Both the position numbers and the translations under genes were made by a program. The notes beneath the pieces are model-generated. The model ran no database searches and was not told the DNA's origin. It worked only from the letters and a program-made list of their open reading frames with translations. 64,000 bases of DNA from a virus, in IMG/VR virus record IMGVR_UViG_3300042197_003344, positions 13,299 to 77,298 of that record. One strand, 5' to 3'. Shown piece by piece: positions 12,137 through 51,622 of this stretch (position 1 is the stretch's first letter; every line of letters begins with the position of its first letter).

Positions 12137-13309
12137 ATGAAAAAAGGTAAAATTATAAATTTTGAATTACTATGGGATACACAAGATGATCCATGGCCGA
12201 TTAACCTTAAATTAATATCAGAGGACATGAGAAAAGCCGCTGAGGAAGGATATAATTTAATTGTCGGAATTATGTTAGTTGAAGGAATACGACCAATAGA
12301 CGAACCCGGTTTTCTTACATTCATGAATTCTTTAGAATCTTTGGGAAAAAAGATAGGAATCGAAGAAATAATATTGGTTACAGGGTCTTCTGAAAAATTT
12401 AAAAATATCAATGTTCCTTACAAGTTGTATCACGTAAATTGTAATTTAATTATTGCTTACAATAGCTATAAAAACTTGTTATCAGATCTTCCGTTCTATA
12501 ATTCGATTAATAAACAATTTTTATTTCTTACAGGCATAGCTACTCGTCCAAACAGAGTAGGATTATTAAGCAAATTTTATGATAATAAATTGTTAGAAAA
12601 TTCAGTTTGGTCATTCTTTTATCCTGCTACAGATGGTGACAGACAGTGGTGTAGAAATTATCTTTCTCATTATGATGATTCGGAATATGAAAAATTTATT
12701 ACAGATTGTCAGAGGTCGGTTGATGATAGATATACTGAATACAATAAATTTCAAAGAGATGATTTTCAAAATCAAACTGATATAAATTGGATAGACATAC
12801 GGCACACAGAATTTTGTAAAAATGAAACTTTTATCGATCCTGAAATATTTAGAGATACAGCTTTTAGCATAATAAGCGAAAGCACAAATTATTGGAATGA
12901 AAATTTTGATTTTGTCACAGAAAAAACTTGGAGAACAATAATTCATAGACATCCTTTTATATTCGCAGGTCATCCAGATCAATTTATGTATTTGAAAAAT
13001 TTAGGACTTAAAACTTTCGAAGACTATATGAAAATAAAGGATTATTGTTACATCAAAGATGAAAATACAAGATTAGATGCTATTGTAGAAAATACCAAAG
13101 ATTTTTTAATTAACCATAAAAAATATTCGGAAAACATACAGAAAGATGTTCAACATAACTTTTCTTTATTTTTAAGTCTAGCAAATGAAGAATTAAAAAA
13201 TCTCAAAACACTAATGTCAAGTTACGGTGTTGATGTGCAAGATGTTGAACATTATTTTGATTGCACAGGATTTGATCATTTAATAAGGATTCCGAATGAG
13301 CAAAGGTAA
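12137..13309 (+). CDS. Glycosyltransferase-like protein (TEKT motif), paralog 1
   Basis: FSIISES...FVTEKTWR...HPF...GLKTF. Confidence 0.55.
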   Translation: MKKGKIINFELLWDTQDDPWPINLKLISEDMRKAAEEGYNLIVGIMLVEGIRPIDEPGFLTFMNSLESLGKKIGIEEIILVTGSSEKFKNINVPYKLYHVNCNLIIAYNSYKNLLSDLPFYNSINKQFLFLTGIATRPNRVGLLSKFYDNKLLENSVWSFFYPATDGDRQWCRNYLSHYDDSEYEKFITDCQRSVDDRYTEYNKFQRDDFQNQTDINWIDIRHTEFCKNETFIDPEIFRDTAFSIISESTNYWNENFDFVTEKTWRTIIHRHPFIFAGHPDQFMYLKNLGLKTFEDYMKIKDYCYIKDENTRLDAIVENTKDFLINHKKYSENIQKDVQHNFSLFLSLANEELKNLKTLMSSYGVDVQDVEHYFDCTGFDHLIRIPNEQR

Positions 13310-22985: not shown

Positions 22986-23059
22986 TGGTGCCCCATGGCA
23001 GAATCGAACTGCCAATTGATCATTACGAGGGACCTGTTATACCATTTAACTAAAGGGGC
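22986..23059 (-). tRNA. tRNA-Thr(CGT)
   Basis: Cloverleaf, loop CTCGTAA, encoded CCA; stem mismatches. Confidence 0.8.
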
Positions 23060-23063
23060 AGTT

Positions 23064-23137
23064 TGGAGCGGGTAGCGAGAATCGAACTCGCAAATCAACT
23101 TTGGCAAAGTTGTAGGTTACCATTACATCATACCCGC
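23064..23137 (-). tRNA. tRNA-Gly(GCC)
   Basis: GCGGGTA acceptor, loop TTGCCAA, TCCA. Confidence 0.9.
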
Positions 23138-23138
23138 A

Positions 23139-23711
23139 TTAGAGATATTCAACGTCCGCAGCTAATATAAACCTGTATTCATTACTCTGCACTATTCCCG
23201 GTCTGTGCCATTTATCACCAGGGTAAATCAGCCAATTGTATTTGGAAGGTCTTACAAAAAATTTCACATCGGATTCTAAACCTTCCGGAGCGAATTCTGT
23301 TCCGCAGTAATCTAGATCTTTTACATCGTTGGGAATATCAAGATAAAAGATCCCGCTCATAATTTTAGATTCGGGTTTAGATGGATGCCAATGATGATGC
23401 CAAAGATTTTCTCGATTTTCGGCACCCTCAAGATTAGTCATAAATGACCAGGCCATCATATTAGAAACTTTAACTTCACGACCTAGATATAAGAAAACAC
23501 TGAATAAAAAACTCATTCTATATTTTAACCAGATGTCTTCTGCTCTAGCAAAAATATTTTCTTTGGTTTGATACTTAGGAGAATTTGCAAAGTAATTTCC
23601 GTCAGCGATAATTTCTTTAATAATGCCTATGGCGATATTATTATCCTGCTCAGTAATTACAGAGCTAAAGTCAAACTTCCGGAAGGTATCGTTTTGATCT
23701 ATTACTTGCAT
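23139..23711 (-). CDS. Fe(II)/2OG oxygenase-like protein
   Basis: WHHHWH...SGIFYL...WHRPG...R. Confidence 0.55.
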   Translation of the reverse strand: MQVIDQNDTFRKFDFSSVITEQDNNIAIGIIKEIIADGNYFANSPKYQTKENIFARAEDIWLKYRMSFLFSVFLYLGREVKVSNMMAWSFMTNLEGAENRENLWHHHWHPSKPESKIMSGIFYLDIPNDVKDLDYCGTEFAPEGLESDVKFFVRPSKYNWLIYPGDKWHRPGIVQSNEYRFILAADVEYL

Positions 23712-23717
23712 TTATTA

Positions 23718-23795
23718 TGGAGCGGGTAGGGAGAGTCGAACTCCGCGATCTTCAGCTTGGAAGGCTGCTGGACGCCCCTTGTCCTGTCTACCCGC
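23718..23795 (-). tRNA. tRNA-Gly(TCC), atypical D arm
   Basis: GCGGGTA acceptor, loop CTTCCAA, TCCA. Confidence 0.8.
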
Positions 23796-23813
23796 ATAAA
23801 ACTATTTAACACT

Positions 23814-23888
23814 TGGCCTCGCTACCAGGAATCGAACCTGGATCTAGTTCTTAGGAGGAACTCGTTCTGTCCATTGAACTACAGCGAG
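23814..23888 (-). tRNA. tRNA-Arg(CCT)
   Basis: Loop CTCCTAA, GCCA. Confidence 0.9.
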
Positions 23889-23892
23889 TAAA

Positions 23893-23971
23893 TGGTCCGA
23901 GTGGCAAGATTCGAACTTGCGACATCCTGCTCCCAAAGCAGGCGGAATGAACCAGGCTATCCTACACTCGG
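23893..23971 (-). tRNA. tRNA-Pro(TGG)
   Basis: Loop TTTGGGA, ACCA. Confidence 0.9.
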
Positions 23972-23976
23972 ATGAT

Positions 23977-24050
23977 TGGTTGCGGAGGAGGGAGTCGAAC
24001 CCCCAACGTCAGCTTATGAGACTGACAAGATACCATTTCTATACTCCGCG
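23977..24050 (-). tRNA. tRNA-Met(CAT), initiator-like acceptor (C1:A72)
   Basis: CGCGGAG/CTCCGCA acceptor, loop CTCATAA. Confidence 0.85.
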
Positions 24051-24054
24051 TCAA

Positions 24055-24223
24055 ACTTTTATTGATAGTACTCAAGCCTTATAGGACTGAGCGAATTTCT
24101 GAGTGGAGTTCGATTCTCCTCATAAGCCATTGCTCACGGTTTTATCAGAAGAGTAAGATGGCCCTATTCCTCATGAGTCTGTGCGTCCACAAACGATACC
24201 CGCTGAATGCTATCAATAAAAGT
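24055..24223 (-). ncRNA. Candidate structured RNA closed by a long terminal stem
   Basis: acttttattgatag...ctatcaataaaagt 14-bp inverted repeat, extendable, with internal hairpins. Confidence 0.5.
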
Positions 24224-24428
24224 GTCTAGCCACAGTTCCCTGTTCCGCCCTAGACTGAGTTGTCTACCCTGTCGATCAGTATTTAGGTTTTTGTCGTCAG
24301 TTCTGCTTCTGCCGCCACGGTGTCTCAAGTCGCCCCTAAAGAGGGCCTTGGGGTCGTTACCGTTTGCACCCTGACATTCTGGTGAAGTCAATTACCCCCT
24401 TTAATAACGAGGAAGGGACCCCGGGGTC
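24224..24428 (-). ncRNA. Candidate structured RNA(s)
   Basis: GC-rich intergenic region; ggggtc/gacccc, gccc/gggc, gtctag/ctagac stems. Confidence 0.4.
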
Positions 24429-24430
24429 TG

Positions 24431-25003
24431 TTAGAGCAAGCCTTCTTCTTGAAGGACTTGAACAACTTCATCGCTGAGCGGAATCTCAGTTTTAATGTTC
24501 AACTCTAAAATTTCATCATTGAGTTTTTGCTTTTGCTTTTTCAGGTTAAGGATTTCTGCCTTGGCCTGAGCGATTTGCTCCTTGCTAACCACAGTAGTAC
24601 TTACTGTATCGCCGTAGCCGTAAATTCTGCTACGAGCTTCGTCCTTGAGACTCTTGATCTTCTCAAGTTTACCTTTGATCACATCGAGATCAGTGTAAGG
24701 CTTCAATGTAGCCAGCTGTTCCAATTGACCAATCCTCTTGTCAATAAACGCAGCTTTAGCTAGTGTAGTATCAATATCACTAGCGGCATTAGCAGTACCA
24801 ACCAAAGCTCTGATATTATATAGAGCCATCGTCAGTTTCTGTCTACGGGCATCTGCCGTAAACAAGGCTTCGTTGGCCTTGGTCAACTCTACACCGGGAT
24901 CTTGGAACTCGTTCAGTTCTACAGTGGTGTCGAAGCTGATGTTTTTAATTACATCATTGATGCTGTTCTGTACAGCATTAGCCTTGCGCAGTGTGATATT
25001 CAT
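24431..25003 (-). CDS. Coiled-coil hypothetical protein (possibly DIP1984/DUF6847-like)
   Basis: Helical hairpin pattern ending [17 protein letters not shown]; start overlaps rpoZ stop. Confidence 0.6.
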
Positions 25004-25230
25004 TCCCATTTTGCCTTTTCCTTTTTCTTTAATTTTGTTAGATATTCTGCTTTGGTATACTTACCTTGTTCGATTTCTCTAAGAGCTGTAATAGTAGGAG
25101 ATGCATCCTTGCCGTCTACTCTTTGTAGAGAACCATTTTTAAGTTCTCTGGCACGTTGACTAGCTATCAGTACAAGATCAAATCTATTACCAATTTGCTT
25201 CACTGCTTCTTCTGACGAAATTCTTGCCAT
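25000..25230 (-). CDS. rpoZ: RNA polymerase omega subunit
   Basis: [32 protein letters not shown]. Confidence 0.92.
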
Positions 25231-25243
25231 CTTGCTTCCTTAT

Positions 25244-25272
25244 ATTATACTGACGGATCAATGAAAGGTCAA
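25244..25272 (-). promoter_or_regulatory. sigma70-type promoter for rpoZ
   Basis: TTGACC-17-TATAAT. Confidence 0.75.
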
Positions 25273-25274
25273 GT

Positions 25275-25513
25275 AATAGACCGGACAAATGACAAACGGA
25301 TTTTATCAATCCTTGACAACGTGCAATAGACAGGCGACAGTGGCCTGAATATTTCCGATCAGCAATTGACAGGTATGTAAGAATCGGTTCACTCAAGCAC
25401 GAAGACTTTTCAAGAGTCTTTGCCAGATAAGTTCGGATTAGGTATAAAACCTAAGCCTAGTGTCTATCCTCATCTACCTTTCACCTCACCGGTTGAGTTA
25501 TTTCTAACTCAAC
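25275..25513 (-). ncRNA. Candidate ~240-nt RNA with UGUC repeats
   Basis: Own promoter; several hairpins; six TGTC in about 90 nt. Confidence 0.45.
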
Positions 25514-25520
25514 AAAACTT

Positions 25521-25548
25521 ATTATACACTGTTTTATGTCTTTGTCAA
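25521..25548 (-). promoter_or_regulatory. sigma70-type promoter
   Basis: TTGACA-16-TATAAT. Confidence 0.75.
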
Positions 25549-25564
25549 GACATTTTGATAATCT

Positions 25565-25638
25565 TGGTGCCCCTTGACAGAATCGAACTGCCAATTGATG
25601 ATTACAAATCAACTGTTATACCATTTAACTAAAAGGGC
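25565..25638 (-). tRNA. tRNA-Thr(TGT)
   Basis: Loop TTTGTAA, ACCA. Confidence 0.9.
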
Positions 25639-25642
25639 ATAT

Positions 25643-25716
25643 TGGTGGAGGATAACAGAATCGAACTGTTAATCACGGCTTGCAAAGCCGTTGTTATCCC
25701 ATTTAACTAATCCCCC
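25643..25716 (-). tRNA. tRNA-Ala(TGC)
   Basis: G3:U70, loop TTTGCAA. Confidence 0.92.
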
Positions 25717-25722
25717 AATACG

Positions 25723-25878
25723 TTAATTATTTTTCTTTTCTTCTTCTGCTAGGTATTCTTGAAGTTTGGCTTGGAACTCTGATTCACTTAATCCGTGCCA
25801 ACCAATACAATCTCCGGTTGGGCTACGACCACAGCCGCAGGTTCCAATTTTTTCTGTTGTATTAACTCTAACTTGCAT
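25723..25878 (-). CDS. Small CDGSH-like Fe-S/Zn-finger protein
   Basis: CGCGRSPTGDCIGWH; RBS GGAG; start MQVRV. Confidence 0.65.
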   Translation of the reverse strand: MQVRVNTTEKIGTCGCGRSPTGDCIGWHGLSESEFQAKLQEYLAEEEKKNN

Positions 25879-25879
25879 A

Positions 25880-26059
25880 TTATTCTCCCTTGTCCTCTCT
25901 ACGATTTTTCTCTCTCTTAGGTTGGATCGCGGCAGCAAGTTCTGCACCAATCATGGCACGTTTCCAATCATTACGTTGTTGTGTGCTAGAAAATTTACTC
26001 AGTGCTAAACTGGTCTTTAAAGCCTTTGACATCTTATAATTTGCGGTAGGTTTCAACAT
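25880..26059 (-). CDS. Small basic hypothetical protein (59 aa, not in ORF track)
   Basis: MLKPTANYKMSKALK...EDKGE; RBS AAGGA. Confidence 0.65.
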   Translation of the reverse strand: MLKPTANYKMSKALKTSLALSKFSSTQQRNDWKRAMIGAELAAAIQPKREKNRREDKGE

Positions 26060-26079
26060 TTAGTTTCCTTTTTTAAACT

Positions 26080-26172
26080 TGGTGGAAGGAGAGGGATTCG
26101 AACCCTCGGACCACTTTTACAGAGATCGACGGTTTAGCAAACCGCTGCCTTCAGCCTCTCAGCCATCCTTCC
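26080..26172 (-). tRNA. tRNA-Ser(GCT)
   Basis: Loop TTGCTAA, long V arm. Confidence 0.9.
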
Positions 26173-26178
26173 TAAATC

Positions 26179-26253
26179 TGGTGCATCGTAATGGAGTCGA
26201 ACCACTGACATTCGCCTTGTAAGGGCGACGTTCTACCGCTGAACTAACGATGC
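26179..26253 (-). tRNA. tRNA-Val(TAC)
   Basis: Loop CTTACAA. Confidence 0.9.
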
Positions 26254-26256
26254 ATT

Positions 26257-26339
26257 TGGTGCCCCAGGTCGGACTCGAACCGACACGCACTAGGCACTGG
26301 CTTCTAAGACCAGCGTGGCTACCATTACACCACCGGGGC
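26257..26339 (-). tRNA. tRNA-Leu(TAG)
   Basis: Loop CTTAGAA, V arm. Confidence 0.9.
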
Positions 26340-26350
26340 AAACAATGTAT

Positions 26351-26379
26351 ATTATGTATTCTTTGTTGACAAATGTCAA
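26351..26379 (-). promoter_or_regulatory. Internal sigma70-type promoter in tRNA array
   Basis: TTGACA-17-CATAAT. Confidence 0.65.
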
Positions 26380-26387
26380 CTATATTC

Positions 26388-26459
26388 TGGCGCCTCTGGA
26401 GAGATTCGAACTCCCATAACCTGGTTTAGAAGACCTGGCACCGCTCCATCGGCAGAGGC
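26388..26459 (-). tRNA. tRNA-Arg(TCT), atypical (shortened D region)
   Basis: GCCTCTG/CAGAGGC acceptor, loop CTTCTAA, normal T arm, GCCA. Confidence 0.7.
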
Positions 26460-26464
26460 GTGTT

Positions 26465-26541
26465 TGGTACGGATGGTGGGATTCGAACCCACGAAACTCA
26501 GATTTTAAGTCTGATACGTATACCTATTCCGTCACATCCGT
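26465..26541 (-). tRNA. tRNA-Leu(TAA), short variable loop
   Basis: Loop CTTAAAA, ACCA. Confidence 0.85.
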
Positions 26542-26544
26542 ATA

Positions 26545-26620
26545 TGGTGCCAACTCCTGGGATCGAACCAGGTTCTACCGCTCTTCAGGCGGCTGCAATG
26601 ACCACATTTGCTAAGTTGGC
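26545..26620 (-). tRNA. tRNA-Phe(GAA)
   Basis: Loop CTGAAGA. Confidence 0.9.
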
Positions 26621-26625
26621 ATATT

Positions 26626-26699
26626 TGGGGTGAAGCCGGGAATCGAACCCTGCCTTACTGTTTCACAGACAGCCGTGCAACCATTACACTAGCAACACC
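26626..26699 (-). tRNA. tRNA-His(GTG)
   Basis: G-1:C73, loop CTGTGAA; two U:U pairs in acceptor. Confidence 0.85.
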
Positions 26700-26714
26700 A
26701 TTGATGGTATCGTC

Positions 26715-26900
26715 TTATTTTGCAGGTTCTTTAATTCTTTCAATTTTCTCTAATGCATCGCGACGCATTTTAAATTCACGATGCTCATTCGGACGATGAA
26801 CTATGATGTATTCTACACCATCAATGTTTTCGGTCACACGGATATCGTCACAGACAAAACGCTCATTATTAAAACGATTTTTAAGCATAGTTGCTTTCAT
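26715..26900 (-). CDS. Small hypothetical protein
   Basis: 61-aa ORF with AAGGAG RBS. Confidence 0.7.
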   Translation of the reverse strand: MKATMLKNRFNNERFVCDDIRVTENIDGVEYIIVHRPNEHREFKMRRDALEKIERIKEPAK

Positions 26901-26916
26901 AACAATCTCCTTGAAA

Positions 26917-26991
26917 TGGCCGGTCCGGAGAGATTCGAACTCCCGACTGCTGGTTTCGAAGACCAGAACTCTTCCACTGAGCTACGGACCG
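26917..26991 (-). tRNA. tRNA-Arg(TCG)
   Basis: Loop CTTCGAA. Confidence 0.88.
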
Positions 26992-26996
26992 GTGTA

Positions 26997-27070
26997 TGGT
27001 GCTCTAGACAAGAATTGAACTTGTGATTCTGTCTTACCAAGACAGTGTTATACCACTTAACTACAAGAGC
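26997..27070 (-). tRNA. tRNA-Thr(GGT)
   Basis: Loop TTGGTAA. Confidence 0.88.
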
Positions 27071-27071
27071 T

Positions 27072-27145
27072 TGGCAGGCGTGCTAGGGCTCGAACCTAGA
27101 ATAACAGAGTCAAAGTCTGTGGTGTTACCATTACACTACACGCCA
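27072..27145 (-). tRNA. tRNA-Gln(TTG)
   Basis: Loop CTTTGAC, U1:U72. Confidence 0.88.
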
Positions 27146-27149
27146 ACAG

Positions 27150-27392
27150 TTATAGATCTTTAGCGTCCACACAGGTGCCGCCTTTGAACACATAGACATC
27201 GCTGTCTAATCTTAGTTGTTCAAAAACGTGATTATTTACACACTTGTAAGGATCTTTGCGATTTTGTACTAGGTAGACTGCTCCGAAACCTAGGCCTGCA
27301 AGGATCATTAGAATTGGAATGTATTTCAGGTACTTTACTAGTTCTGGCATCGCAGCTAATATCTGCGGCAGATTTTTCAGTAGCTCTTTCAT
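27150..27392 (-). CDS. Small membrane protein
   Basis: One TM segment; TAAATA 5 nt upstream of ATG. Confidence 0.65.
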   Translation of the reverse strand: MKELLKNLPQILAAMPELVKYLKYIPILMILAGLGFGAVYLVQNRKDPYKCVNNHVFEQLRLDSDVYVFKGGTCVDAKDL

Positions 27393-27407
27393 ACACTTAT
27401 TTAAGTC

Positions 27408-27482
27408 TGGTGGTAATGGAAAGAGTTGAACTTTCACTGGGCACCGTATGAAGGTGTTGCACTACCATTATGCTACATTACC
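27408..27482 (-). tRNA. tRNA-Met(CAT), elongator Met or Ile2
   Basis: Loop TTCATAC, ACCA. Confidence 0.8.
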
Positions 27483-27568
27483 ATATAGAAACACACTTAT
27501 GCCTTTTTCCTAGAAGGTGGCCTTTCCCAGTACTCTAACTATGTTTGGAGTTAAGTGTGTTTTTATAT
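27483..27568 (-). ncRNA. Candidate stem-closed small RNA between tRNAs
   Basis: atataaaaacacactta...taagtgtgtttctatat inverted repeat enclosing two small hairpins. Confidence 0.45.
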
Positions 27569-27642
27569 GGTAGGAGCACAGGGATTTGAACCCTGGACCA
27601 ACGGATTAAAAGTCCGCTGCTCTACCGCTGAGCTATACTCCC
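27568..27642 (-). tRNA. tRNA-Lys(TTT)
   Basis: Loop CTTTTAA. Confidence 0.92.
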
Positions 27643-27647
27643 ATATA

Positions 27648-27737
27648 GTCCGTATTAAGTTGATTTACTGTGCCAACCTGGACCATACGGGATTCCAGGC
27701 GACACTAAGGTTTACCTCGCTTCATGTCTTTCTCCTT
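27648..27737 (-). other. RBS + 6-codon mini-ORF (MKRGKP-amber) + H-type pseudoknot
   Basis: AAGGAG, ATG AAG CGA GGT AAA CCT TAG; S1 gtgtcgcctgga/tccaggttggcac; S2 ccgtat/atacgg. Confidence 0.6.
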
Positions 27738-27746
27738 AGTGTTTGT

Positions 27747-27775
27747 ATTATATGTTCACTTCAATGTTTTGTCAA
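27747..27775 (-). promoter_or_regulatory. sigma70-type promoter upstream of mini-ORF/pseudoknot
   Basis: TTGACA-17-TATAAT. Confidence 0.85.
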
Positions 27776-27842: not shown

Positions 27843-27917
27843 TGGTAGCCTATCTTGGGAACGATCCAAGGACCCCCGCCTTATCAAGACGGTGCTCTAC
27901 CACTGAGCTAATAGGCT
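27843..27917 (-). tRNA. tRNA-Ile(GAT)
   Basis: Loop TTGATAA; T loop ATCGTTC. Confidence 0.88.
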
Positions 27918-27922
27918 ATATT

Positions 27923-28012
27923 TGGTGGAAGCGGTGAGATTCGAACTCACGGACCCTTTCGGATCGTCTGTTTTCAAGACAGGTGCATTCAGCCAGGCTC
28001 TGCCACACTTCC
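27923..28012 (-). tRNA. tRNA-Ser(TGA)
   Basis: Loop CTTGAAA, V arm. Confidence 0.9.
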
Positions 28013-28020
28013 ATAATCTT

Positions 28021-28098
28021 TGGTACCCCTCGTCGGATTCGAACCGACACGATTCTCCTTTTGAGAGAGACGCCTCATACCAATTGGGCTAGAGGGGC
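28021..28098 (-). tRNA. tRNA-Leu(CAA), short variable loop
   Basis: Loop CTCAAAA. Confidence 0.82.
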
Positions 28099-28102
28099 AT
28101 AC

Positions 28103-28180
28103 TGGAGCACAGGGTGAGATTTGAACTCACGGTTTTAGGGATTTGCAGTCCCTTGCATTGGGCCACTCTGCCACCTGTGC
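28103..28180 (-). tRNA. tRNA-Cys(GCA)
   Basis: Loop CTGCAAA, U73. Confidence 0.9.
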
Positions 28181-28186
28181 ATTGTT

Positions 28187-28260
28187 TGGCGTACCCTGAG
28201 GGATTTGAACCCCCACCGACAGTTTTGGAGACTGTAATGCTGCCGTTACACTAAGGATAC
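28187..28260 (-). tRNA. tRNA-Trp(CCA)
   Basis: Loop CTCCAAA, G73. Confidence 0.9.
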
Positions 28261-28264
28261 ATAT

Positions 28265-28363
28265 TGGTGCCTCTGGCAGGACTCGAACCTGCACACGCCG
28301 GCTTATCTGGCCGGTGCTTTGACGAGGTATAAGCTCGTTTCTTTACCATTAAGCTACAGAGGC
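28265..28363 (-). tRNA. tRNA-Ile(TAT) with long extra arm
   Basis: Loop CTTATAC; about 29-nt variable region with ccggc/gccgg stem. Confidence 0.75.
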
Positions 28364-28369
28364 AAAACT

Positions 28370-28445
28370 TGGAGCGGGTGAACAGTCTCGAACTGTCGAC
28401 CTTAACTTTGGCAAAGTTACGCTCTACCAACTGAGCTACACCCGC
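28370..28445 (-). tRNA. tRNA-Gly(GCC), second copy
   Basis: Loop TTGCCAA. Confidence 0.92.
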
Positions 28446-28446
28446 A

Positions 28447-28521
28447 TGGTACACGGTACGAGAATCGAACTCGTCTTTCCGCCTTGAAAGGGCAGCGTCC
28501 TTACCGATAGACGAACCGTGC
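28447..28521 (-). tRNA. tRNA-Glu(TTC)
   Basis: Loop CTTTCAA. Confidence 0.9.
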
Positions 28522-28527
28522 ATTATT

Positions 28528-28602
28528 TGGCTCCGAGAGTAGGGATCGAACCTACGACCAATTGGTTAACAGCCAACTGCACTACCGCTGTGCTATCTCG
28601 GA
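28528..28602 (-). tRNA. tRNA-Asn(GTT)
   Basis: Loop CTGTTAA. Confidence 0.92.
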
Positions 28603-28611
28603 ATAAAACTT

Positions 28612-28686
28612 TGGCGGTCCCAGGGGGTAACGATCCCCCTCCTTCGGCGTGACAAGCCGGTATGCGTCCATGAACACCTTGAGACC
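28612..28686 (-). tRNA. tRNA-Asp(GTC)
   Basis: Loop TTGTCAC; T loop ATCGTTA. Confidence 0.85.
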
Positions 28687-28691
28687 AAATT

Positions 28692-28780
28692 TGGTGGACC
28701 CTGAAGGAATCGAACCTAATCGCCAGCCACCCAACATATCAAGGCAACAGATTTACAGTCTGCCGTTGGGAACAGGATCC
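28692..28780 (-). tRNA. tRNA-Tyr(GTA)-like RNA lacking a canonical D arm
   Basis: 8-bp acceptor GGATCCTG/CAGGGTCC, GCAGA-CTGTAAA-TCTGT, TTCGATT loop, ACCA. Confidence 0.7.
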
Positions 28781-28790
28781 AAAATTTGTA

Positions 28791-29006
28791 ACACTCTCCG
28801 ACTATGTCTGTCAACCGCTTACAAGGCAGTAAGGAGAGTGTGTAATTAAGCATTCTCCTTTATGATTTTAGACGCCGTCGCAGGGCGAATGGTGAATGCT
28901 TAATTACGCTAGTTTTTTTAGTCCCACAAGAGGGATTCCATCCACTAGGCCGCCCGTTTACGTTTTTATTACAGTGTGTCGCTAGGACCTCGTTCCCTAT
29001 CCACAC
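28791..29006 (-). ncRNA. Cluster of candidate structured RNAs at 5' end of tRNA array
   Basis: acactctcc/ggagagtgt; gtaattaagcattc/gaatgcttaattac; gtgtg/cacac with tagg/ccta. Confidence 0.4.
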
Positions 29007-29013
29007 TTGAGTC

Positions 29014-29190
29014 TTAGTCTTCGTAGACTGGACTCATTTGTTGAGCTTCGTATAAAACACGGGCTCTATCGATCTTATCTTGAATAAGTTTGCGTTTCTG
29101 TTCTTCATCTAGTACCTGACTAGCAGAAGCGTAAGCCTGTTCAACTATGTGTTGACTCAACTGATTAAATTCTTTTTCGTTCAAATACAT
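29014..29190 (-). CDS. Small hypothetical protein (58 aa, not in ORF track); first gene after attenuator
   Basis: MYLNEKEFNQ...SPVYED; RBS AAGGAG. Confidence 0.7.
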   Translation of the reverse strand: MYLNEKEFNQLSQHIVEQAYASASQVLDEEQKRKLIQDKIDRARVLYEAQQMSPVYED

Positions 29191-29204
29191 ATTTCTCCTT
29201 ATAT

Positions 29205-29238
29205 AAACAAAAACCCCAGGGTTTTTAGTCCTGGGGTC
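29205..29238 (-). terminator. Intrinsic terminator of putative attenuator
   Basis: accccagg-actaaaaac-cctggggt followed by ttttgttt. Confidence 0.85.
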
Positions 29239-29289
29239 CTTTTGTGGTTTGAGTTACTTTTTGCTTAACTCACAGCCTCCACGGACCCC
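29233..29289 (-). promoter_or_regulatory. Antiterminator hairpin overlapping leader stop and terminator 5' arm
   Basis: Nested ggggtcc/ggacccc, gtgg/ccac, tgagtta/taactca. Confidence 0.7.
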
Positions 29290-29405
29290 GGATATAGCTC
29301 TGGTGTACGATCATTATTAAAGAGACTAATCGCAGACCAAGAGATGGACATGCCTACCTGTTTGGCTATACAATAATGTCTTGATAACGATCTTACTGTG
29401 TTCAT
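29265..29405 (-). CDS. Putative attenuator leader peptide (46 aa, all 20 amino acids)
   Basis: MNTVRSLSRHYCIAKQVGMSISWSAISLFNNDRTPELYPGSVEAVS; upstream AAGGA. Confidence 0.65.
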   Translation of the reverse strand: MNTVRSLSRHYCIAKQVGMSISWSAISLFNNDRTPELYPGSVEAVS

Positions 29406-29455
29406 TTGCTTTGTTTTTTCCTTTAAATTATGCGCTATCTCTAACGCATATGTCT

Positions 29456-29484
29456 ATTGTATAGTTATTTAGTCTCGCTGTCAA
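29456..29484 (-). promoter_or_regulatory. sigma70-type promoter P1 of tRNA operon leader
   Basis: TTGACA-17-TACAAT. Confidence 0.8.
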
Positions 29485-29550
29485 CCACTTTTGGTAAAAT
29501 TGATTACAAGCTCTGTTGCTTGTTTTGCAAGACAATTTAACTATGCACTA

Positions 29551-29579
29551 ATTGTATTGTCTGTTTATTTATATGTCAA
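29551..29579 (-). promoter_or_regulatory. sigma70-type promoter P2, with TATAAATA in spacer
   Basis: TTGACA-17-TACAAT; spacer begins TATAAATA. Confidence 0.75.
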
Positions 29580-29607
29580 CTAAAAATACCCAGATAATGT
29601 GGCATTT

Positions 29608-29850
29608 TTACAACAGTTTATCAGATTCGATTAGTAAGTGCTTACCAACTTCGAACATACCTACTCCGCCTACGAGATCAAGACAACTGGCGTGAACCTG
29701 TGCTTCGCCGCAGTCATCCATCGAACAGGCTACGAATTCTTTTATCTTTCCTTCCTCGATCTGTCGTTGCATTTCTCGCAACACTTCTAGCATCGAGATT
29801 TTTCTTTCTTCATCTTTTTTAGCTTTTGGATCAAGTGTAACTACATTCAT
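29608..29850 (-). CDS. Hypothetical protein
   Basis: 80-aa ORF in operon context. Confidence 0.7.
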   Translation of the reverse strand: MNVVTLDPKAKKDEERKISMLEVLREMQRQIEEGKIKEFVACSMDDCGEAQVHASCLDLVGGVGMFEVGKHLLIESDKLL

Positions 29851-29859
29851 AAAAAATCC

Positions 29860-30420
29860 TTAGGTAATATGGTCTGCCACATTAAGATCTACACATTCTT
29901 CTGCTGTCAGATAAACATCAGACGGTGGCAGCAATTTTTTCTTGATCACGCCGGCAGCTAATCCGGTGGCTTCTTTCAATATCACTACCATTTTTTCATT
30001 ACAGATATCATTTTCTTTCATGGTCGCTTTGAGATCATGATATTTGTCACTCATAGTTTCGCTGAATTGATGACACATAAAACTGGTATTTCTGGCAGCA
30101 TATCTTTCGCCTTTGGTTCCTGCTGCAAAGATTAAAAATGCTGCACTCATCACTGAACCCAGGGCTATAGTTCTTACAGAATGACGACTATTTCTAATCA
30201 CATCGATCAGTGCAAATGCTTCGTAGAGATTACCGCCCGTTGAGTTTATGTACAGAGTAAGAACTTTTTCTTTGGCATCTAGATTTTCGTATAAAATCCA
30301 TTTGATGCATTCTGAAATATTGCTCTCTTCAATTTCCCCAAAAAGATAATGTATGTTGCTTTCGAGTAATTTAATGTTGACGCGATCTTCCGCATTAAAA
30401 TCATCTGCTTTTTTGGTCAC
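29860..30420 (-). CDS. clpP: ClpP-like protease
   Basis: LYINSTGG, MSAA (Ser), MCHQ (His), DVYLTAEEC; likely GTG start after GGAG. Confidence 0.85.
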   Translation of the reverse strand: MTKKADDFNAEDRVNIKLLESNIHYLFGEIEESNISECIKWILYENLDAKEKVLTLYINSTGGNLYEAFALIDVIRNSRHSVRTIALGSVMSAAFLIFAAGTKGERYAARNTSFMCHQFSETMSDKYHDLKATMKENDICNEKMVVILKEATGLAAGVIKKKLLPPSDVYLTAEECVDLNVADHIT

Positions 30421-30468
30421 GTTTGCTCCTCTGGATTCACTATTACTTATCATATATTATAGCATCAG

Positions 30469-49720: not shown

Positions 49721-51622
49721 TCATTCCTTTTTTTCTGTAAACGTAGCATCCACTACATTATCATCTGTAGGACCTTCGCTGGCTGCTGTTTCCTGAGATG
49801 CTTGCTGTTTAGATTGCTTCTTTTCTAACAGTGTTTTCATTGCAGGATAAACTTTATTCAATTCTTCGGTAATTTTATCCTTGTCGTCACTCTTGAGAGA
49901 TTCTTCCACTGATTTTAATGCAGACTCTAATTCGTTGATTTCGGATTCAGAAAGTTCGTTACGATGTTCCTCGAGATCTTTCTTGACTTCGTGAATTTGA
50001 GCTTCTGCAGAGTTCTTAGTATCGATTAGTTCTCTAGCTTTTTTATCAGCTTCTGCATTTATTTCAGCATCTTGAATCATTTGTTCAATCTGTTCTTTGC
50101 TCAGACCGCTATCTGATTTGATAGTGATCTTATTTTCTTTACCTGTGTTTTTGTCTTTGGCAGAGATATTCATAATACCATTGGCATCAATATCAAAGGT
50201 AACTTCGATCTGAGGTAGTCCTCGACGTGCCGGGGCAATGCCTTCGAGATTAAATTCACCTAATAGCTTGTTGTGCTGAACAAGCTCGCGCTCGCCTTGG
50301 AATACTTTGATAGTAACAGCAGGCTGATTGTCTTCAGCTGTTGAGAATGTCTGTTGACCTTTGGTAGGAATGGTAGTGTTCTTTTGAATGATCTTTGCCA
50401 TAACACCACCCAAGGTCTCAATACCCAAGCTCAGTGGAGTTACATCCAATAAAAGAACATCGGTTCTATCTCCGCCTAGCACAGCGCCTTGGATAGCAGC
50501 ACCTACAGCAACAGCTTCGTCTGGATTCACATCCTTACGCGGGGCTTTGCCAAATAGCTTTTCTACTTCTTCTTGTACCTTAGGCATACGTGTTTGGCCG
50601 CCAACAAGAATAACTTCGTCGATGTCTGTGGCAGTAACACCTGCATCTTGCATGGCCGTGCGACAAGGAGCAAGGCTGCGTTGGATTAGATCCTCCACCA
50701 GGCTTTCTAGTTTGGCCTTGGTTAGCTTAACTACTAAATGTTTAGGACCGCTAGCATCAGCAGTGATGTAAGGTAAATTTACTTCAGTTTGTGTAGAATT
50801 TGAAAGTTCGATTTTAGCTTTTTCAGCTGAGTCTTTCAATCTTTGTAAGGCCAACACATCTTTGGTTAAATCAACACCTTGTTCTTTTCTAAATTCTTCA
50901 ACAAGGTAATCCATAATACGTTGATCAAAGTCTTCACCGCCTAGGAAGGTATCTCCGTTAGTGGAAAGAACTTCGATTTGTTTGTCTCCATCGACATTAG
51001 CGATTTCGATAATCGACACATCGAACGTGCCGCCACCCAGGTCATAAACAGCGATTTTACGATCTGCCTTATCCTGCTTATCAACACCGTAGGCCAATGC
51101 GGCTGCTGTGGGCTCGTTGATAATACGCAGAACTTCTAATCCCGCAATCTGTCCAGCATCTTTAGTTGCTTGTCGTTGGCTGTCGTTGAAGTAAGCAGGA
51201 ACTGTGATAACTGCCTGAGTGACCGTAGTGCCAAGATAGTCTTCGGCGGTCTTCTTCATCTTGCGCAGTACTTCAGCAGAAATCTGTGGTGGTGCTAGTT
51301 CTTTACCTTGTGTTCTAACCCATGCATCTCCGTTTTTACTTTCCATAATTTCATATGGCATTAGGTCAATATCTTTCTGCACAGCTTGTTCTTTGAACTT
51401 GCGTCCAATTAGACGTTTAGCTGCATAAATTGTATTTTTAGGATTAGTGATTGATTGACGTTTTGCACTGGCGCCAACTAGAACTTCTTCGTTGGTATAG
51501 GCAACAATACTTGGTGTAGTGCGAGCACCTTCAGAATTTTCAATGACTTTGGGAGTTCCATTTTCGACGATTGCCACGCATGAATTGGTGGTGCCGAGGT
51601 CAATACCGATGATTTTAGACAT
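49721..51622 (-). CDS. dnaK: Chaperone DnaK (Hsp70)
   Basis: [25 protein letters not shown]; full length. Confidence 0.98.

Follow-up and report, generated by a model that had tools for sequence, protein, structure and literature searches.

An uncultured freshwater phage carries, ahead of its transfer RNA (tRNA) genes, a compact leader region whose short peptide contains all 20 amino acids and whose RNA can adopt two mutually exclusive folds. We describe this element in a stretch of 64,000 nucleotides (hereafter the window) that covers positions 13,299 to 77,298 of IMG/VR record IMGVR_UViG_3300042197_003344, a 77-kb piece of the phage genome. The element lies at 29205-29579 of the window and consists of two promoters, a leader open reading frame (ORF) of 46 codons, an antiterminator hairpin that contains the stop codon of the ORF, and an intrinsic terminator. 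Its anatomy is conserved among relatives, whose leaders are under selection for a complete amino-acid set, whose helices covary and whose tRNA arrays lie downstream of the element. We consider it likely that the element is a ribosome-mediated transcription attenuator reading general decoding capacity. A sequence-only reading of the window had proposed such a general translation-health sensor, and the ORFs of the relatives, the covariation, the linkage to the array and the completion of the amino-acid set ahead of the antiterminator arm all support that proposal.

Leaders stocked with all 20 amino acids

Coordinates given here are window positions, and every feature of the switch and of the tRNA array lies on the minus strand. 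Two sigma-70-type promoters, each reading TTGACA-17-TACAAT and scoring 11/12, are located upstream at 29551-29579 and proximal to the ORF at 29456-29484, in keeping with the two sigma70 promoters first noticed in the sequence. Where the proximal transcript is predicted to start, the sequence reads as a small hairpin (ATGCG...CGCAT, 29430-29449), and by eye a hairpin of different sequence occupies the equivalent place in the relatives L006, L011 and L015. The leader ORF (29265-29405), taken from the ORF list, starts 50 nt past the proximal -10 box and comprises 46 codons followed by TAA. A direct count agrees with the 20 amino acids and 35 distinct codons originally reported for it, including ATA, ATC and ATT for Ile and five Ser codons. 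A Shine-Dalgarno (SD)-like AAGGA lies 14 nt from the ATG, so the reservation already expressed about long SD spacing holds. The peptide matches no Pfam or PHROG family, and similar predicted proteins number only four in a set of 5.8 billion proteins; gene callers skip the ORF nearly everywhere, which makes the element easily overlooked. It is present once in the source contig.

Relatives were first reached through a neighbouring ClpP-like gene (L006-L010, L011 and L015, all with the layout of the window), and a scan of viral contigs with a 17-nt motif from the ORF then gave at least 119 stretches. The pattern of the terminator served as a second, ORF-independent anchor and added a set that includes much more divergent leaders. 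Together the two independent anchors define, among the matches listed, a family of ∼140 distinct variants at more than 170 loci, counts that take in related sequences. At all but two of the loci with at least 700 nt of downstream sequence, the motif is followed, 320-1090 nt further on, by the start of a tRNA array on the same strand; the two loci without an array have no ATG and are probably chance matches. Only 0-4 tRNAs per locus are found upstream of the motif. The check first suggested, on the regions upstream of tRNA arrays in related phages, thus speaks for the proposal, two doubtful loci aside. The gap between terminator and first tRNA has a median of 441 nt and contains no promoter-like site at 67 of 109 loci; the next strong promoter comes after a median of 11 tRNAs, and arrays with at least 25 detected tRNAs cover 16-20 amino acids. 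The terminator is the most conserved part of the family. Upstream, a promoter site scoring at least 10/12 lies within 230 nt in 131 of 133 relatives, 85 of which have two tandem promoters, ∼50-60 and 140-160 nt before the ATG. In a subclass of leaders (L132, L136, L138, L144, L154 and similar ones) only 7-10 nt separate the -10 box from the ATG and an SD is lacking, which suggests that their messenger RNAs are leaderless or nearly so.

The ORF is kept open throughout the family. Of 175 matches to the antiterminator-terminator structure only six lack a called ORF, five of them cut by contig ends, leaving a single complete copy without an ATG ORF. In the N-terminal third all three codon positions are free to change, yet no stop ever arises. 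What is retained instead is the amino-acid inventory. In the core family all 20 amino acids are found in 84 of 90 distinct peptides (43-55 amino acids); in an enlarged set (41-55 amino acids) 113 of 138 peptides contain 20, another 20 contain 19 and five contain 18. Of random peptides drawn to match the composition of the family, which is itself already flattened, 2.6% reach 20. Control ATG-to-stop ORFs of 41-52 amino acids from related contigs do so in 1.6%, in a control set that still contains some leaders that escaped the filter. The caution that a peptide of this length may hold all 20 residues by chance can thus be set aside, given 1.6% of control ORFs against 113 of 138 leaders.

Some residues keep their number but shift in position. 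For each of Cys, His, Trp and Tyr, 81-90% of peptides have exactly one copy (variance-to-mean ratios 0.08-0.20), and the single Cys is spread over 18 alignment columns and the single His over 14. Among 17 lineages of less than 40% pairwise identity, ten hold 20 amino acids and six hold 19; Cys is found in 15 of them, in 13 columns, and His in all 17, in 14 columns. Since Cys and His shift between alignment columns, completeness is not plain inheritance of fixed positions. In the homologues, then, the N-terminal peptide drifts but ORF length, the 20 amino acids and a wide choice of codons persist, which is the pattern that had been put forward as a check on the sensor proposal.

Codons, too, are sampled widely. 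Leaders use 35.6 distinct codons on average against 32.8 expected from the phages’ own codon usage, and use of both codon boxes exceeds expectation for Ser (99% vs 93%), Leu (81% vs 66%) and Arg (81% vs 59%), as does the occurrence of Ile AUA alongside AUY (78% vs 51%), although RNA-structure constraints also shape some leader codons. Because the array covers every codon box, matching the leader codons to the phage’s own anticodons cannot discriminate. A further test concerns the position of the set within the ORF. Among 112 complete peptides, 86% already hold every amino acid ahead of the antiterminator 5′ arm, compared with 26% after permutation of residue order; all residues in the tail of ∼7.6 codons are redundant, and where the tail contains a Cys a second Cys lies upstream. 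The set being complete before the 5′ arm, the sensing codons lie where a stalled ribosome would still allow antitermination.

One part of the peptide behaves differently. A Trp codon upstream of the residues DRTPE is 98% conserved across the family, and in GATCGYACACCAGAG, which encodes DRTPE (window 29298-29312, minus strand), third positions are near-invariant: GAT, ACA, CCA and GAG predominate, and only CGC and CGT alternate. This fixation may stem from a pause hairpin, from an effect of the nascent chain or from a binding site.

Two mutually exclusive, covarying folds

In the window the end of the leader folds into a three-tier antiterminator hairpin (29233-29289; -22.1 kcal/mol by RNAfold) built from outer GGGGTCC/GGACCCC, middle GTGG/CCAC and inner TGAGTTA/TAACTCA helices, with the leader stop codon (29267-29265) base-paired within the inner stem. 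It is followed by an intrinsic terminator (29205-29237; -14.6 kcal/mol) formed by ACCCCAGG/CCTGGGGT, an 8-bp GC-rich stem with a 9-nt loop and a U tract. The outer 3′ arm of the antiterminator and the 5′ arm of the terminator have ACCCC in common, so the two folds are mutually exclusive. These RNAfold energies uphold the initial description of a nested hairpin that encloses the stop codon and captures the terminator arm. The full 226-nt leader has a folding z of -3.6.

A further hairpin is possible within the ORF (29298-29343, from the minimum free energy fold of the window), pairing the Trp-codon region with GATCGYACACCAGAG and not with the antiterminator arm. It is moderately supported, with a family mean free energy of -12.5 and z of -1.4, and may represent a pause element. 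By eye, with no systematic search made, the window ORF contains no GGACC-like partner of the antiterminator 5′ arm; if the arm has no such upstream partner, the state with no translation should be “on”, unlike in trp. A GGAG near the end of the ORF was considered as an SD-like pause site and rejected, as it forms the 5′ side of the middle helix, opposite CUCC or CUUC.

The structure is maintained across the 138 variants, 95% of which fold with the outer stem closed between the 5′ arm and the 3′ arm segment. Mean energies in the family are -23.8 kcal/mol for the antiterminator and -13.4 kcal/mol for the terminator hairpin, the inner antiterminator segment has a mean z of -3.6, and the stop codon is paired inside the antiterminator in ∼88% of variants. 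The sequence that the two folds have in common across the family is ACCCY. The Y of GGACCCY forms G-C with its upstream partner in 50 cases, A-U in 74 and G.U in seven, with two mismatches, and it also remains paired with its terminator partner; GGGTTC/GAACCC variants of the outer stem occur as well. Innermost helices are highly diverse (at least 56 distinct), and native inner segments are more stable than chimeras of 5′ and 3′ halves from different leaders in 94% of variants (-9.9 vs -6.1 kcal/mol).

MAFFT with RNAalifold gave no consensus structure for the antiterminator, its 3′ arms being misaligned, and was replaced by these alignment-free tests and a covariance model. In the covariance-model alignment of 109 matches, which is fitted to the structure, pairing is seen in 90.5% of cells, a share that falls to 82% with shuffling and to 33-56% with sliding; two-sided changes occur in 14 of 20 pairs, and compensatory cells number 195 against 71 in shuffles, none of 500 shuffles reaching as high. 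Pair counts, chimeras and covariance model agree that all three helices covary, a point that had been put forward for testing in relatives. GGGTCC is read as Arg-Val-Arg or as Gly-Ser depending on the subfamily, so conservation here acts on the RNA.

Between the end of the antiterminator 5′ arm and the stop codon lie 8-26 nt (median 15), and a further 22-34 nt separate the stop from the start of the 3′ arm. From this spacing, a ribosome on the last codons or the stop would melt or occupy the inner and middle helices and part the outer arms.

The tRNA array and its surroundings

Downstream of the switch ARAGORN detects 29 same-strand tRNAs. The first tRNA after the switch is an aberrant tRNA-Tyr (GUA) at 28695-28781, undetected by ARAGORN, to which Rfam gives a weak match and for which homologues in L006, L011 and L015 are called tRNA-Tyr. 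The Rfam match is to tRNA-Sec at 24 bits, and the gene has an unusual D region and a long extra arm. With tRNA-Tyr added to the ARAGORN set, all 20 amino acids are covered. The original count of 31 tRNAs for 20 amino acids therefore stands as to coverage and for 30 of the genes, while the 31st is a probable tRNA-Ile (UAU) at ∼28265-28363.

ARAGORN and Rfam place a first tRNA block at 27843-28781, comprising Tyr, Asp, Asn, Glu, Gly, a probable Ile-UAU, Trp, Cys, Leu, Ser and Ile. The next 12/12 promoter follows at 27775-27747, and the remaining array (22986-27775) has its own consensus promoters, with strong internal ones at 27775, 26379, 25548, 25272 and 22984. The reservation that internal promoters would confine control to the 5′ part of the array is thus well founded, ∼11 tRNAs preceding the 12/12 promoter.

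Between the terminator and tRNA-Tyr lie two further features. Directly 3′ of the terminator is an ORF of 58 amino acids from the ORF list (29014-29190) with a strong SD, which would be the first read-through product. No Pfam or PHROG family was found for it; homologues follow the terminator in L006, L011 and L015, and it is missing in relatives whose tRNAs begin ∼230 nt past the terminator. The ORF is followed by a spacer of ∼220 nt (28790-29010) that by-eye sequence comparison indicates to be conserved, non-coding and apparently structured, with equivalents in L006 (7440-7626), L011 (7545-7797) and L015 (7410-7654). Blocks common to these relatives are GAAACGAGGTCC and AACGGGCGGC, and long closing stems are present. 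The spacer has no Rfam family match; it could represent a small RNA released by processing, or the leader of a pre-tRNA.

A second kind of short ORF is found inside the array. The 12/12 promoter is accompanied by AAGGAG and a six-codon ORF, M-K-R-G-K-P with an amber stop (27704-27775, minus strand), and ∼60 nt of structured RNA separate this mini-ORF from tRNA-Lys (UUU) at 27642-27568. In 45 of 75 distinct related loci a mini-ORF with the pattern M-K-R-x(1-3)-K-x and a TAG stop is present, mostly 81-95 nt ahead of the first tRNA-Lys, and this mini-ORF may, judging by its sequence, be a Lys-specific leader.

Two other genes of the window were noted. A ClpP-family protease gene (29860-30453, minus strand) lies directly upstream of the leader region, and a full-length DnaK/Hsp70 homologue (49721-51622, minus strand) shows ∼65% identity to proteobacterial-type DnaK by tblastn.

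The locus found no match among GenBank phage records by megablast or blastn, and no cultured phage with the element was identified. Among the sequencing runs searched, the full stretch was found only in freshwater metagenomes, from which it may itself derive. A scan of 185,579 species genomes returned three matches, two by chance and one a true copy of leader and switch (L231) on a 6.2-kb contig (JBBAKF010000113.1) binned in a Polynucleobacter metagenome-assembled genome. This contig is most likely phage DNA that entered the bin along with its host or accidentally, and gives a weak hint of Polynucleobacter as host. The Moraphage lineage (PMC12619734) was considered and rejected as a relation; these are different phages with predicted Bacteroidota hosts, and no link between them and the present lineage was seen.

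A model of the switch, its rivals and known systems

The element has the parts of an attenuator: a promoter-near ORF, an intrinsic terminator, a covarying antiterminator that excludes it, and an ORF so positioned that the ribosome could select between the two folds. The match between leader codons and output takes a modified form, with all amino acids and an excess of codon boxes in place of codon runs. From this arrangement we infer that the ORF is translated and the terminator functional, and we infer likewise the direction of the switch and its physiological trigger. Host RNA polymerase would start at either strong promoter and transcribe the ∼46-codon leader ORF, the end of which lies in a very stable antiterminator whose 3′ arm doubles as the terminator 5′ arm. 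When the leading ribosome keeps up with the polymerase and reaches the last codons or the stop, the antiterminator would be melted and occupied, and the terminator, which a ribosome on the stop could not reach, would be free to fold and stop transcription. If the ribosome is held earlier, or never loaded, the antiterminator would fold first, because it is far more stable and is wholly transcribed before the terminator 3′ arm, and the polymerase would read through. The read-through RNA would comprise the small ORF, the structured spacer and the first tRNA block. A shortage of any one charged tRNA, whether caused by starvation, late-infection demand or cleavage of host tRNAs, would in this way turn the phage tRNAs on, and restored supply would turn them off again. 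A link to anticodon nucleases such as PrrC is speculation.

A more ambitious extension, which we offer tentatively as possible, is a homeostat of the whole decoding apparatus. One leader would sample every amino acid and most isoacceptor classes, and any failure, for example through host anticodon nucleases cutting tRNAs, would call up replacement tRNAs; amino-acid-specific mini-leaders such as M-K-R-x-K-x would form a second layer of control.

Several points weigh against an attenuator that reads decoding capacity. Support for the switch is comparative and thermodynamic, the family counts overstate the number of independent events, and the covariance alignment includes some reverse-strand matches of the near-palindromic hairpin. 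One or two amino acids are missing in 25 of 138 variants, and for a pure sensor the conserved Trp-DRTPE part, with its fixed third positions, is unusual. Efficient translation has to be assumed, since the SD is weak or lies far off and some relatives are apparently leaderless. Control would be partial, since in the window only the first block of ∼11 tRNAs follows the switch without an intervening strong promoter, and 29 of 109 relatives have a promoter-like site of at least 11/12 in the gap between terminator and tRNAs. Two libraries labelled metatranscriptomic, one of them probably DNA, contain short contigs of relatives over leader and terminator; such contigs cannot show RNA ends and give no evidence either way.

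The same anatomy might report something simpler. The switch could respond to overall translation and its coupling to transcription (ribosome availability, host shut-off or inhibitors) and not to each tRNA, the full amino-acid set adding little. The ribosome-free default would be read-through, the antiterminator being ∼10 kcal/mol more stable and transcribed first, so any global block of translation would induce, and antibiotic-responsive leader attenuators and whiB7 behave likewise. We nevertheless think it unlikely that this is all the element does, for it gives no account of why Cys, His, Trp and Tyr codons persist singly although they change position, why the set is completed before the antiterminator arm and why codon boxes are over-sampled.

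Two other accounts detach the leader from the tRNAs. The attenuator might control only the adjoining small ORF and structured RNAs, the tRNAs being transcribed from their own promoters, as the 58-amino-acid ORF and the ∼220 nt of conserved spacer between terminator and tRNA-Tyr might suggest, together with a TTGACA-18-TACAAA near 28800, in the spacer just ahead of tRNA-Tyr, and the strong gap sites of the 29 relatives mentioned above. Yet the window’s TTGACA-18-TACAAA is not conserved in L006, L011 and L015, the 67 relatives noted earlier have no promoter-like site in the gap, and the small ORF is missing in many relatives, whose tRNAs come ∼230 nt after the terminator; the tRNA array is the one constant downstream feature, and we regard control of the small ORF and spacer alone as improbable. 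It seems to us slightly more improbable still that the ORF encodes a functional small peptide with its own promoter and terminator, lying near the array by gene order, or that the leader RNA acts in trans. Promoter, ORF and terminator do make a complete gene cassette, and the Trp...DRTPE and AKQAG-like segments are conserved as amino acids with some synonymous change. But the peptide matches no Pfam or PHROG protein family, its N-terminal third is almost free to vary, and a peptide function gives no reason for 20 amino acids at shifting positions, for a stop codon within a covarying hairpin that overlaps a terminator, or for GGGTCC conserved over two reading frames. An attenuator that reads general decoding capacity accommodates these features and remains the explanation we favour.

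A growing view holds that phage tRNA arrays insure the virus against codon mismatch, host shut-off and defences that cut tRNAs, and to our knowledge almost nothing has been established about their control. A demand-driven switch, if true, would give them a control logic of their own, and the leader would be the first for which comparative evidence indicates selection for the complete amino-acid alphabet, a signature that can be searched for elsewhere. At ∼250 nt, with ordinary bacterial-type promoters and terminator, the element is also a compact and portable test system, which if working could report any aminoacyl-tRNA shortage.

A full-text search of the literature found no description of the switch element, in line with the initial impression that no such phage system is known; multi-amino-acid sensing does have a precedent, in the upstream ORF (uORF) of whiB7 discussed below. 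Rfam searches of window 28500-29900 at E-values up to 10 gave no leader or T-box match and, besides tRNA and the weak tRNA-Sec, only chance-level hits. The leaders of amino-acid operons (trpL, hisL, pheL, leuL, thrL, the multivalent ilv leaders, and pheM of pheST) are short and translated, form alternative hairpins, favour the terminator when a ribosome reaches the stop and tie output to the signal, as proposed here. They respond to one to three amino acids by means of repeated identical codons, and their four-segment layout terminates without translation; the phage leader, in contrast, has no codon runs, contains each amino acid usually once to a few times, and should read through when untranslated. 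T-box elements likewise couple the charging state of tRNA to terminator read-through, binding one specific uncharged tRNA directly and without an ORF, whereas any sensing by the phage element would proceed via the ribosome. In antibiotic-responsive leader attenuators, among them vmlR, msrD and the MexXY regulator leader PA5471.1, a ribosome that stalls in a short leader ORF likewise lifts termination, but there drug-bound ribosomes stall at particular peptide motifs and the output is a resistance gene; we know of none for which control of tRNA genes or dependence on a complete amino-acid set has been reported.

The closest known system is the uORF attenuator of whiB7/wblC in mycobacteria and other Actinobacteria. 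There, a promoter-proximal uORF precedes a mutually exclusive antiterminator and terminator, stalling in the uORF leads to read-through, and the amino acids present in the uORF decide which starvations induce it (PMC10274678). The Mycobacterium smegmatis uORF contains 19 of the 20 amino acids, and the system is activated via the pathways for 18 of them all; loss of the uORF start codon raises basal expression (PMC10274678). The uORF is of variable length, enriched in alanine, and incomplete in M. tuberculosis (PMC10274678). whiB7 thus provides the precedent for sensing many amino acids through one leader, and it shares the default-on logic that we propose for the phage. The two have no sequence similarity and differ in setting, whiB7 being cellular and controlling a transcription factor while the phage leader is viral and heads a tRNA array. 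The phage leader is also compact (41-55 codons) and selected for completeness at shifting positions, and in the phage, sensor and output together would close a direct supply loop.

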